64,000 nt of DNA. Source: a virus. The stretch covers positions 96,001 through 160,000 of the IMG/VR virus record IMGVR_UViG_3300045988_129382; one strand, 5' to 3'. A program made the position numbers and the translations under genes. A model generated the notes under the pieces. It was not told the DNA's origin and searched no databases. It was given only the letters and a program-made list of their open reading frames with translations. Shown piece after piece: positions 59,955 through 62,675 of this stretch. Each line of letters begins with the position of its first letter. Position 1 is the stretch's first letter.

Positions 59955-62675
59955 ATGAAATTACAAAAGAAAACTTTATTAAGTGGTTTGGTTATGGCAT
60001 CTCTTGTTGGTAGCACAGCGATGGCAGCTGGTGTCGATAACACCGTAAATGGTGGTTTTGGTGCTGAAGCTTATGGTTATACCAATACTATCACTGCAAC
60101 TGGAACTTCAGCATTTACAGTTGGTTATCAAAATGAAGTGTCTGGTGCCAATAGTATTGCATATGGGCATAATAACAAAGCAACTGGTGCCAATAGTATT
60201 GCTGGTGGTGAAAATTCTGAAGCAAAAGGTTATAGTAGCTTAGCTATTGGCTCATCCGCACAAGCATTGACAGAATATACCTACGCCATCGGTTCTCAGG
60301 CAAGAACTAATGGAAATAACACTGTTGCTGTTGGCAATGGAGCATATGCTAGTAATGATAATGCTCTAGCTATCGGCTCTAGTACTACAGCAGATGGTAA
60401 AGATGCTGTAGCTTTTGGTTCACATGTTCAGTCTAATTCTGAGCATACAGTAGGTATCGGTACAGCAGTTACTACTAAGAGTAACGATAGCATTGGTATC
60501 GGTCATGGAGTTGTGATTAATAAAAACAATAGTATCGGCATTGGTAGTGGGGTAGTTAATAACCTTGGTAATAGTATTGGTATCGGCAATGGAGTCGCTA
60601 CTGACTTTAATACTATTGGTATTGGTAATGGTGTGGAAACTAAGGTTCAAGACACTATTGCTGTTGGTAATGGTGTAGTCTCCAATGGTGAATCTTCAGT
60701 AGCTATTGGTAATGCTATCCATGCCGATGGTGTTAAAACTGTAAACATTGGCACCAATGTTTCAGCTACAGGTGTATCTTCTATTGTTGTGGGTCGTGAT
60801 ACAACTGTAAATGGGGCTGACACTACAGTAGTAGGTGCAAACAATGGTACTGTTGGTGCTGACCAAAGTGCTGTTGTTGGTTATAACAACAAAGTACTAG
60901 ATAGCTCTAAGGAACAGTTAATCTTTGGTTCTAACTCTCAAACTAAGAGTCAAGGCTCTGTTGTAGTTGGTTCTCATGCAAGTGCTACTGAAATTGATGC
61001 TCTTGCATTAGGCAACAACACTATTGCCGATGTACAGAATGGGGTAGCTATTGGCACCAATTCTGTAACAGAATTGGCTGTAGGTACATCTACAGTGAAA
61101 GACAATGCTACAGATATTCGTTTCTCTAACTCTACATTTGCTGGTTCTACACCTGACTCTGTTGTAAGCTTTGGTGCTAGTGGTCGTGCTGGTGCTGGTG
61201 GTGTAACAGAGTATACACGTCAGTTACAAAATGTTTCTGCCGGTAGAATTTCTGCTACTTCAACAGATGCTATTAATGGTAGTCAATTATATGATACTGC
61301 ATTAGAAGCCCAAAAGCATAACACTGTAGTAGATGGTGTTAATACAACAGTTACATCTAAAGACAATGACTTTGGACGAAAAGAGTACAAGGTTAATGTT
61401 AATAAAACATTAAAAGATATGGATGCTGTTGAATTTGGTAAAGTTACAGATAATAATCACGCAGGTATTAATAAAGATGGTGCTTATTTCTTTAATGGTA
61501 GTGAGCATATTAATATTAAACCTACAGGTATTCAAATTGAGAATACCGATACATTGACACAAGCTACATTCAATAATGAAGGTATGCAAGTGTCTGATGA
61601 TAATGCTACTATTCGTTTTACTACTACAGATATTAGTGCTGGTGGACAACAAATTCACGATGTTAAAGAGGGAACTAAGGATACAGATGCTGTTAATGTT
61701 AAACAGTTAAATGATAAAGCAAGTTCTCTAGATAAGGCTATTACTAACAATACTTATAACATTTCTAAAAATGCTAATAAGATTGGTGAAAATGCTAATA
61801 ATATCATAAAAAATGCATCTGACATTAAAGATTTAGGTAGTAAAGTAAATAAAAATACTGCTGATATTAAATCTTTAGATGAAAAGATTAATGTTGTTGG
61901 CGAAGGTGCTGTAGTTAAAGCTAATCATTATACAGATACACAAGTATCTAAAGTTGGTGCTAACGCTGCCGCTTTGAGTGCCTTGCATCCATTATCTTTC
62001 AATGCTAATGAAAAGGTTGAATATGCAGTAGGTTATGGTAACTATAAAGGTTCTAATGCTGTAGCAGTTGGTATGTTTGCTCATCCTAATGAAAATACAT
62101 TATTATCTTTAGGTGCTACATTTGGTACTGGTGATAATATGGTGAATGCTGGTGCTACATTCCGTATTGGTAAATCTTCTAAACAAGTTACTAATACAAA
62201 TACAGCTGTAGCTAAAGATGTTCAAGACTTAGCTAAAAAATATGAAGCATTGGCTCAAAAATACGATAATCTTGTTAAACATTTAAATGCTGTAGAGGGT
62301 ACTGATTTTGATGTAGAATATCCTGATGTACCTAAAACACATTGGGCATATGATTTTGTTAAAGATTTATCTGATAAAGGTTTCTTAGTTGGTTATCCTG
62401 ATAGCACATTCAAAGGTGATAAAGCTATGACTCGTTATGAGTTCGCAACTGCTTTATATCGTGCATTACAACGTGGGGCAGTAATGGATGCTAATATGGT
62501 TAAAGCTGTTAAAGAGTTTGAACCTGAGTTGAAAGATGTAGAAAAAGCACAACGATTTGTAGTTGTACGTGAAAGTGGTTCTGATAATGAAATTCACAAA
62601 GTTGAACGTGTTCAAGTAAACACTCAATATGGTGAACATACATATCGTGATGCTTATGGTACAGAATTGAAATAA
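59955..62675 (+). CDS. YadA-type trimeric autotransporter adhesin with C-terminal SLH domain
   Basis: Signal peptide MKLQKKTLLSGLVMASLVGSTAMAAG. Many head repeats (NSIAYGHNNKATGANSIAGGENSEAKGYSSLAIGS...). Stalk/neck motifs INGSQLYDT, DAVNVKQLN. Coiled coil. YadA anchor (AALSALHPLSF...YAVGYGNYKGSNAVAVGMF...LSLGATFG...NAGATFRIG). SLH (YPDVPKTHWAYDFVKDLSDKGFLVGYPDSTFKGDKAMTRYEFATALYRAL). ATG 59955 follows aaagggg. Confidence 0.85.
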   Translation: MKLQKKTLLSGLVMASLVGSTAMAAGVDNTVNGGFGAEAYGYTNTITATGTSAFTVGYQNEVSGANSIAYGHNNKATGANSIAGGENSEAKGYSSLAIGSSAQALTEYTYAIGSQARTNGNNTVAVGNGAYASNDNALAIGSSTTADGKDAVAFGSHVQSNSEHTVGIGTAVTTKSNDSIGIGHGVVINKNNSIGIGSGVVNNLGNSIGIGNGVATDFNTIGIGNGVETKVQDTIAVGNGVVSNGESSVAIGNAIHADGVKTVNIGTNVSATGVSSIVVGRDTTVNGADTTVVGANNGTVGADQSAVVGYNNKVLDSSKEQLIFGSNSQTKSQGSVVVGSHASATEIDALALGNNTIADVQNGVAIGTNSVTELAVGTSTVKDNATDIRFSNSTFAGSTPDSVVSFGASGRAGAGGVTEYTRQLQNVSAGRISATSTDAINGSQLYDTALEAQKHNTVVDGVNTTVTSKDNDFGRKEYKVNVNKTLKDMDAVEFGKVTDNNHAGINKDGAYFFNGSEHINIKPTGIQIENTDTLTQATFNNEGMQVSDDNATIRFTTTDISAGGQQIHDVKEGTKDTDAVNVKQLNDKASSLDKAITNNTYNISKNANKIGENANNIIKNASDIKDLGSKVNKNTADIKSLDEKINVVGEGAVVKANHYTDTQVSKVGANAAALSALHPLSFNANEKVEYAVGYGNYKGSNAVAVGMFAHPNENTLLSLGATFGTGDNMVNAGATFRIGKSSKQVTNTNTAVAKDVQDLAKKYEALAQKYDNLVKHLNAVEGTDFDVEYPDVPKTHWAYDFVKDLSDKGFLVGYPDSTFKGDKAMTRYEFATALYRALQRGAVMDANMVKAVKEFEPELKDVEKAQRFVVVRESGSDNEIHKVERVQVNTQYGEHTYRDAYGTELK

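Follow-up and report, generated by a model that had tools for sequence, protein, structure and literature searches.

Our analysis of a 64,000-nucleotide stretch of viral DNA (positions 96,001 to 160,000 of IMG/VR record IMGVR_UViG_3300045988_129382; below, "the window") shows that it carries, at window positions 59955-62675 on the + strand, an intact open reading frame (ORF) of 906 amino acids which almost certainly encodes a trimeric autotransporter adhesin (TAA, type Vc) with an outer-membrane topology. Its architecture is a known one, that of the TAAs of the Negativicutes, and its phage context is undescribed. The gene appears to have been resident for a long time in phages of one family, with genomes of ~200-240 kb, found in human and mostly oral metagenomes; passengers and periplasmic modules seem to have been swapped between the phage lineages with the anchor held constant. 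The best explanation overall, to which we give somewhat better than even credence, is that this resident TAA would be displayed on the outer membrane of the infected cell and would alter its adhesion or aggregation.

The TAA frame runs from an ATG at 59955 to a stop codon ending at 62675. A ribosome-binding site, AAGGGG (59943-59948), lies 6 nt 5' of this ATG, and this spacing is the reason that we disfavour a longer version starting at a TTG at 59856. From the N-terminus the protein is made up of the following parts:

59955-60026, + strand: Sec signal peptide, residues 1-24 (MKLQKK, a hydrophobic core, AMA/AG)
60027-61154, + strand: head, residues ~25-400, with ~24 YadA-type 14-residue repeats
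61155-62000, + strand: necks, connector and coiled-coil stalk, residues ~401-682 (Pfam YadA_stalk; PDB 4usx, 3la9, 2ynz)
62001-62162, + strand: YadA membrane anchor (translocator), residues 683-736 (Pfam YadA_anchor; PDB 2lme, 9gh4)
62184-62300, + strand: periplasmic coiled coil, residues ~744-782 (a long helix in the AlphaFold2 (AF2) model; weak phrog_18012 match)
62319-62447, + strand: S-layer homology (SLH) domain, residues 789-831 (Pfam SLH; PDB chains 8bz2/8bys/8bym)
62448-62675, + strand: C-terminal tail, residues 832-906, and stop codon (motif FEPEL...RF.V...K.ERV.VN...RD.YG.)

Pfam matches were judged by the curated cut-offs, and all four named domains score above theirs: YadA_head with 61.6 bits (7.7e-17; cut-off 25), YadA_stalk in two stretches with 43.3 bits (cut-off 28.4), YadA_anchor over profile positions 4-58 of 60 with 42.9 bits (cut-off 22.7), and SLH at residues 789-831 with 39.5 bits (cut-off 20.8). 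Sequence matches in the PDB concur; the head matches YadA (1p9h), BpaC (7o23), UspA1 and CbpF, the anchor region matches YadA (2lme) and also 9gh4, and the SLH domain matches chains 8bz2, 8bys and 8bym, which are titled "S-layer homology domain-containing protein" and which we take to be Veillonella OmpM. The signal peptide was read directly from the sequence, where it has a 14-residue hydrophobic core; it is kept across the TAA homologues and is without an extended ESPR-type leader. The 14-residue periodicity of the head extends for ~24 turns from residue ~40 to residue ~380, and two DAxNxxQL necks follow at residues ~437-447 and ~576-588. The initial annotation of this DNA, which was made from the letters alone, had described a YadA-type adhesin with a Sec signal peptide, "dozens" of head repeats, a four-strand YadA anchor and an extra SLH domain after the anchor. 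This description is upheld, with both anchor and SLH domain detected by profile search, except in the number of the repeats, for which "two dozen" fits better.

Fragments of the NCBIfam models for EmaA, Ata and YadA are also matched, all far under their cut-offs, so the TAA protein is not EmaA, Ata or YadA. The AF2 monomer model of residues 640-906 has a mean pLDDT (the predicted confidence score) of 46.5, with values of 70-82 in the SLH part only, and was used solely for the order of secondary structure elements: a helix, 4-5 strands (the anchor, at low confidence), a long helix of ~30 residues, and the SLH helices. By analogy with other TAAs a 12-stranded homotrimeric barrel and a surface-exposed passenger are predicted, and likeness to the solved SLH-domain chains makes peptidoglycan or a wall polymer the predicted ligand of the SLH domain.

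The same order of parts (signal peptide, head, necks and stalk, anchor, short coiled coil, SLH domain, tail) is found in the VtaA-type TAAs of Veillonella and other Negativicutes, and the anchor-coiled coil-SLH-tail module of the window protein aligns end to end with TAAs of Megasphaera, Veillonella and Dialister. The tail motif is common to phage alleles A-D and cellular Negativicutes TAAs, and it survives in an SLH-deleted allele (below). The initial annotation's statement that this domain combination is known from Negativicutes agrees with published surveys, which place TAAs with an anchor and an SLH periplasmic domain there only (Bechon 2020, PMC7549365; Dorison 2026, bioRxiv 10.64898/2026.01.22.700529); phages are unmentioned in these surveys. 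Veillonella TAAs have SLH and coiled-coil-only ends, both of which are seen in the phage alleles too, and evolution by domain swapping is common to both sets (PMC7549365). There are also differences. Negativicutes TAAs are encoded by bacterial chromosomes whereas this one lies in a phage-like genome, cellular encoding being the only defining feature that it does not share, and the annotation of one named relative, from Megasphaera, includes an ESPR leader whereas the 906-residue window protein has a short classical signal peptide.

The named cellular relatives are all Negativicutes (Megasphaera, Succiniclasticum, Veillonella, Dialister, Mitsuokella, Phascolarctobacterium and Negativicoccus), with 43-52% identity to the phage modules that is confined to the anchor-coiled coil-SLH-tail module. 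In a search of representative sequences the phage family forms one cluster, after which come mostly proteins matching the anchor-to-tail module alone. A scan of 185,579 species-representative genomes with two exact head motifs, which are very specific and say little on distant cellular relatives, gave one weak match with 35% identity, in a Gastranaerophilales metagenome-assembled genome. Representative, profile and two-motif genome searches found no cellular homologue with more than ~50% identity, and all the closer relatives found come from contigs of this phage family in metagenomes or from short contigs that are unassigned. So the TAA gene appears to descend from Negativicutes TAAs by an ancient split.

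These relationships also bear on the host. The TAA would assign the phage to a host at the class or family level, among the diderm Firmicutes; the host-range clue seen in the initial annotation thus holds at that level and not at that of the genus, since Veillonella, Dialister, Megasphaera and others are about equally distant (43-52%). Three observations, which are not proof, make Veillonella a plausible host. It is among the most abundant genera in oral samples and the sole Negativicutes genus among these. Its G+C content of ~39% is the nearest to the 30% of the phage. Carr 2020 (bioRxiv 10.1101/2020.07.06.186817) lists CRISPR-predicted Veillonella hosts for several jumbo phages of 203-240 kb, for which no link to this clade was found, and gives the host of a related genome as "NA" in its table. 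Separately, a phage from dental wastewater (vOTU_111; closest record BK034824, absent from the phage records searched here) has Veillonella atypica as its predicted host.

More than 120 clusters of full-length TAA homologues, 64-92% identical and with the same four domains, are encoded by metagenomic contigs of up to 196-236 kb (196-239 kb with IMG/VR loci included), and 58 viral loci in IMG/VR carry the gene. Among the 120 homologues listed (at least 64% identity) none is from NCBI or UniRef. Synonymous divergence (dS) between phage lineages is 0.39-0.93 and the ratio of nonsynonymous to synonymous divergence (dN/dS) in the head is 0.15-0.18, and it therefore seems that this DNA is old, has been passed on vertically and is under purifying selection. 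Lineages differ most in the stalk (35-41% identity), and in close relatives the TAA is 90-92% identical and the adjacent genes are 58-74% identical. High conservation of the head might have reflected recent exchange with a host gene; this was considered and rejected, as the dS values (0.5-0.84) are too deep and the listed homologues are without NCBI or UniRef entries. Related TAA-SLH genes of other lineages are present on contigs of 228-280 kb whose viral nature is putative, which suggests that further large-phage lineages carry such adhesins. We observed part-identical (44-58%) TAA-SLH proteins on contigs of ~256-260 kb (P0122/P0278), 280 kb (P0154) and ~239 kb (P0167/P0284), and one TAA-SLH cluster of other lineages has 341 member sequences.

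Synteny was examined in 33 viral loci with the HU-like gene as landmark. The TAA gene is 0.3-6.4 kb past this gene in every locus that reaches far enough downstream, and the alleles found in this slot are as follows:

54602-54952, + strand: HU-like DNA-binding protein gene, the upstream landmark of the TAA slot (Pfam Bac_DNA_binding, 5.6e-29)
Window lineage: TAA 90-92% identical to that of the window, UvsX 98-99% identical
212-kb sublineage (L101-L103, L106): TAA 34% identical, UvsX 94% and HU 80-85% identical
B lineage: TAA 66-78% identical, SLH domain present, C-terminal allele different
Others (L108, L111, L114-L116): TAA 34-46% identical, with a coiled-coil-only periplasmic end

The alleles vary in length from 380 to ~1,200 amino acids, and YadA_anchor is present in all those tested. 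Their periplasmic ends are present in three forms: a coiled coil, SLH domain and tail (in four sequence types); a coiled coil and tail, the SLH domain having been excised by a clean in-frame deletion (L103); and a plain coiled coil. The TAA of L103 (15603-17771 of that locus) retains the anchor, coiled coil and tail despite its loss of the SLH domain. Between the window and L103 about one quarter of the passenger is identical (estimated by inspecting the alignment), as against ~90% of the anchor and periplasmic coiled coil; this, taken with the conserved promoter-like site and leader described below, points to allele replacement in a fixed expression cassette. A headless allele of 380 amino acids, made up of signal peptide, stalk, anchor and tail, was observed in L104 (17656-18798), and L105 has the identical allele.

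The slot and its alleles bear directly on the origin of the gene. The initial annotation had seen in it something like a moron, captured from a host, in part because its codons looked richer in G/C-ending forms than those of its neighbours. If it were a recently captured Negativicutes gene, of host-like composition and sporadic in the phages, this would agree with its own terminators and promoter, with a G+C content above its surroundings and with a C-terminal module homologous to cellular TAAs. The composition argues otherwise, however: G+C at third codon positions (GC3) is lower in the TAA gene, 0.167 vs 0.222 +/- 0.027 in the 71 other ORFs. The overall G+C (0.364, and 0.407 within 60001-61000) is raised because codon positions 1 and 2 (0.506 and 0.418 G+C) encode a protein rich in Gly, Ala, Val, Asn and Thr. 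C-ending codons are indeed slightly commoner (z = +2.75; GGC 0.10 vs 0.06, GCC 0.09 vs 0.03 and ACC 0.07 vs 0.02 in the other ORFs), but G-ending ones are much rarer (z = -3.1) and ATA is far rarer (0.02 vs 0.27). The HU-like gene of the phage shows this bias as well, as do a few other short ORFs, and it is probably the phage's own high-expression bias. Also against recent capture are the nearest cellular relatives, which are 43-52% identical in the C-terminal module alone, the single weak 35% match in the scan of 185,579 genomes, the dS of up to 0.9 between phage lineages, and the presence of the gene in every related locus that covers the slot. We regard recent capture as largely refuted and as very improbable. 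A close source in cellular Negativicutes was not found by the representative, profile and two-motif genome searches, and of the comparison with morons there remains the gene's own promoter and terminator between unrelated phage genes, its foreign composition and sporadic presence having fallen away.

The following signals surround the gene in the window:

59694-59724, + strand: intrinsic terminator closing the upstream unit (13-bp stem, 5-nt loop, T run)
59771-59799, + strand: sigma-70-type promoter-like site (TTTACA, 17 nt, TG-n-TATTAT as an extended -10; GGGG on its 5' side)
59806-59954, + strand: 5' leader of ~150 nt (long-range helix and inner hairpin)
62688-62718, + strand: intrinsic terminator after the TAA gene (13-bp stem, T run, 13 nt past the stop codon)
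62739-62767, + strand: promoter-like site of the next unit, the downstream edge of the cassette (TTTACA, 17 nt, TG-n-TATATT)

The window TAA gene thus appears to be a separate transcription unit made up of terminator, promoter, structured leader, gene and terminator, which agrees with the earlier claim that it has a promoter and a terminator of its own. The frame is kept in L103, where the counterparts are a hairpin at 15388-15418 for the upstream terminator (which is also kept in the close lineage), 17787-17817 for the downstream terminator and 17839-17867 for the promoter-like site of the next unit. Intrinsic terminators number four in 7 kb vs 1.6 expected. Taken as a class, promoter-like sites are no more frequent than expected by chance (48 observed vs 42.8 expected), and six of the ten + strand occurrences of TTTACA-N16-18-TAnnnT in the window are intergenic. 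The site at 59771-59799 is nearly invariant in close relatives and is retained in the 212-kb sublineage (L103), whose coding sequence differs; its consensus and its conservation make it a putative promoter.

In the leader, positions 59807-59820 would pair with 59900-59913 and, in the inner hairpin, 59854-59862 with 59872-59880. RNAalifold, given five sequences from two lineages, finds 24 pairs, five of which are preserved through changes on both sides; conservation of the fold is suggestive only, as there are effectively two independent sequences. The leader RNA could be a regulatory or stabilising element; an Rfam scan gave zero family matches in it, and the matches in the whole window are tRNAs only. 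In the B lineage the TAA gene is directly behind a short ORF, and so the self-contained form of the cassette is lineage-specific; there a terminator follows the HU-like gene, no intergenic promoter adjoins the TAA gene, and a terminator-like hairpin is again present 3' of it.

The remainder of the window is phage-like. It has 30% G+C and a strong, uniform GC skew, nearly all of its ORFs of at least 90 amino acids are on the + strand (those on the - strand being nested inside + strand ORFs), and it encodes NrdD, NrdG, a UvsX-like recombinase, an exonuclease, SSB, a dUTPase, guanylate kinase and methyltransferases. The TAA gene has the HU-like gene, a phosphoesterase gene and replication genes as its neighbours, outside any structural module; no structural genes were detected among the annotated ORFs of the 64-kb window. 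The TAA gene and 20 kb of the window gave no megablast match in 50,697 deposited phage records, and the only tblastn matches in the same records were to a Hep_Hag protein on a Salmonella contig, with 27% identity, and to an SLH "porin" of cyanophage S-SRM01. The missing structural genes and nucleotide matches would be expected if the DNA were not from a phage at all, and the adhesin were an ordinary cellular gene on a large plasmid or a chromosomal island of a Negativicutes bacterium. We consider this scarcely credible, however, since the relatives are IMG/VR viral contigs, their sizes are uniform (196-239 kb) in many independent assemblies, and T4-like replication and recombination genes, tRNAs, strict one-strand gene orientation and 30% G+C accompany the gene. 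In addition, the B-lineage homologue P0105 is encoded on a 235,681-bp contig in the European Nucleotide Archive (ENA) and on a Human Microbiome Project (HMP) scaffold of tongue-dorsum sample SRS019607, the sample from which a circular 235,695-bp jumbo phage with a major capsid gene was assembled, one of four syntenic but divergent genomes (Carr 2020, bioRxiv 10.1101/2020.07.06.186817). An adhesin or autotransporter is unmentioned in that study. Coverage in samples of the SRS019607 type is ~220-240x. The phage setting given to the gene at the outset is thus borne out by the phage-like genome, by its viral relatives in IMG/VR and by the capsid-bearing circular phage from a related sample.

Display on the virion, which the initial annotation had listed among the possible roles, would make the protein a fibre for adsorption like the YadA-domain structural proteins of cyanophages and other phages. 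Such proteins have been detected in the virion proteomes of some phages (PMC9146016), and the TAA protein does match the uncharacterised phrog_20057. Cyanophage S-SZBM1 gp54, for example, has YadA-like head repeats as here and is part of the virion proteome (PMC9146016), but the window protein has a Sec signal peptide, a YadA_anchor and an SLH domain and is encoded at a non-structural location. The cleavable signal peptide, beta-barrel anchor and periplasmic domain direct the protein to the outer membrane, and its neighbours are genes of replication and nucleotide metabolism. Its best homologues are not confined to phages with a demonstrated tail-fibre role, which would have told against the initial annotation. 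Phage particles assemble in the cytoplasm, unlike the Sec, anchor and SLH topology of this protein, which we therefore place on the infected cell; we think a virion fibre highly improbable.

If the protein is displayed on the infected cell, the following course of events may be envisaged, in which all the steps after transcription are predicted by homology. Host RNA polymerase would transcribe the TAA gene during infection, and the 24-residue signal peptide would route the product through Sec. Three anchor segments would build a 12-stranded barrel in the host outer membrane, aided by the host beta-barrel assembly machinery (BAM), and the passenger would be threaded outward as a trimeric fibre. 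The periplasmic coiled coil and SLH domain would tether this fibre non-covalently to the peptidoglycan, as in host adhesins. The stickiness of the infected cell would thereby be altered, through auto-aggregation, co-aggregation or attachment in the tongue or plaque biofilm, and the cell would be held in place, near new hosts, until lysis.

That adhesion remodelling is the purpose of the gene we propose more tentatively than the display itself, giving it somewhat less than even credence. It is favoured because autoaggregation, co-aggregation and biofilm formation are what the nearest relatives of known function bring about (PMC7549365), because the head is under purifying selection, and because a large-genome phage should profit from remaining attached and near new hosts where saliva clears the habitat. 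Several points weigh against it. That a presumably lytic phage would benefit from adhesion is argued and is not a result, the promoter assignment comes from consensus and conservation only, and the AF2 monomer model of the C-terminal part is of low confidence (mean pLDDT 46.5). The headless 380-residue allele of L104 and L105 could hardly work as an adhesin, unless these are decaying copies, and very different alleles at one conserved slot also typify genes for exclusion and immunity.

The last point leads to the main rival of adhesion remodelling, which is superinfection exclusion or receptor shielding. The fibres might coat the outer membrane, or disturb a host TAA or other receptor, and so block the adsorption of other phages or of the phage's own progeny that meet cell debris, adhesion by the head being secondary. 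Diverse alleles at one slot are a common pattern for exclusion and immunity loci, and the TAA alleles in this one slot are 34-92% identical while UvsX is 94-99% identical; moreover, the anchor is the sole invariant part, the headless 380-residue alleles persist as intact ORFs, and a sigma-70-type promoter and a place among non-structural genes fit early expression. On the other hand, simple steric masking has no need of a head of ~24 repeats under purifying selection (dN/dS 0.15-0.18). To our knowledge no TAA acts as an exclusion protein, and nothing on such a role was found in the literature. The diversity of alleles does not discriminate, because host TAAs swap domains likewise for reasons related to adhesion (PMC7549365). 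We judge exclusion to be unlikely, if clearly less so than the other alternatives discussed here.

A third role for a surface-tethered protein would be as an accessory to lysis, in which an overproduced coiled coil and SLH domain would compete for peptidoglycan with OmpM, the SLH-bearing tether of the host outer membrane, and loosen that membrane late in infection. The match of the SLH domain to the solved chains 8bz2, 8bys and 8bym agrees with this, and we know of no described lysis system for phages of diderm Firmicutes. Such a function would nevertheless have no need of a passenger of 680 residues that is under purifying selection, and the gene is kept where the SLH domain has been cleanly deleted (the 212-kb sublineage) or where a plain coiled coil takes its place. 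Competition by the SLH domain was rejected as the general function, the domain being dispensable in some lineages, and we think envelope untethering very unlikely.

Display of the TAA on the infected cell, which we continue to prefer, has partial parallels in other phages. The Eib TAAs of E. coli are likewise outer-membrane trimeric autotransporters and cause aggregation or chain formation. Their genes are said, in work of Sandt and Hill from 2000 and 2001 that the literature examined did not confirm, to be carried by lambdoid prophages. They are lysogenic-conversion genes of temperate proteobacterial phages of ~40-50 kb, whereas the genome here is ~200 kb or larger; their anchor is at the extreme C-terminus with no periplasmic domain, whereas the window TAA has an SLH end of the Negativicutes type; and unlike them the window TAA is conserved throughout a phage family. 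Phage λ Lom and Bor and phage T5 Llp are phage-supplied proteins of the host envelope that change adhesion, serum resistance or adsorption. These proteins and the S-SRM01 "porin" belong to other protein families and are not trimeric autotransporters, and we know of none among them that occupies a conserved, allele-swapping slot. The "porin" of Synechococcus phage S-SRM01 (MW015081.1, 240 kb) has an SLH region (185042-185260) that is 38% identical to residues 788-859 of the window protein, and it is a further case of a phage-encoded protein of the outer membrane that has an SLH domain as its tether. In the literature we found no report of phage genomes with a complete TAA that has both anchor and periplasmic SLH domain, and none of jumbo phages with a conserved TAA slot in which alleles are swapped.

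Some other features of the window and of related phages were noted. Six clustered tRNA genes (12845-13397: Ser-TGA, Trp, Ser-GCT, Arg-CCT, Met and Leu-TAG) have a TTTACA-type promoter-like site upstream, at 12264. Positions 35886-53712 contain ~17 consecutive + strand genes for proteins of 240-300 amino acids, arranged as tandem arrays of paralogues in four families (5, 2, 3 and 7 members; 22-58% identity), and the members tested are without Pfam or PHROG annotation except for one weak metallopeptidase-like match. Another pair of paralogues (6791-7996 and 9222-10391, 65% identical, with one ORF between them) matches phrog_12517 and the C-terminal part of a DNA methyltransferase family. Further PHROG matches among the ORFs of the window are to a Doc-like toxin, a MazF-like growth inhibitor and a QueE-like radical SAM protein. 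Related phages have inteins (L003, 13219-15993 and 20443-22724, in a DNA polymerase III delta'-like gene and another large gene) and, near the TAA slot, genes for LAGLIDADG homing endonucleases (L001, 1163-2113).

TAAs are the main adhesins for aggregation and for entry into oral biofilms in Veillonella and its relatives, and here a widely sampled, abundant family of 200-240 kb oral phages always bears a TAA gene of its own, with interchangeable heads. The gene would give an uncultured group of jumbo phages a class-level host assignment, the diderm Firmicutes. The phage alleles form a natural library of adhesin heads, and those with the SLH domain deleted or with only a coiled coil are natural experiments on the purpose of the periplasmic domain; the adhesion hypothesis is testable in the existing genetic system of Veillonella parvula without isolation of the phage. 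If the fibre is displayed, phages would directly influence which cells adhere to which, both on the tongue and in plaque. A bolder version, which we find possible but doubtful, is that a dedicated, highly expressed slot in this jumbo-phage family dresses the Negativicutes host in an adhesin chosen by the phage and swapped between its lineages. If this were true, the choice of the partner or surface to which the host adheres would lie with the phage; local transmission would gain from infected cells being glued to susceptible neighbours, and the co-aggregation networks of the oral biofilm could be reshaped. The TAA would then count as an auxiliary adhesion gene, a counterpart of the auxiliary metabolic genes, and would be a new form of manipulation of host behaviour by lytic phages.

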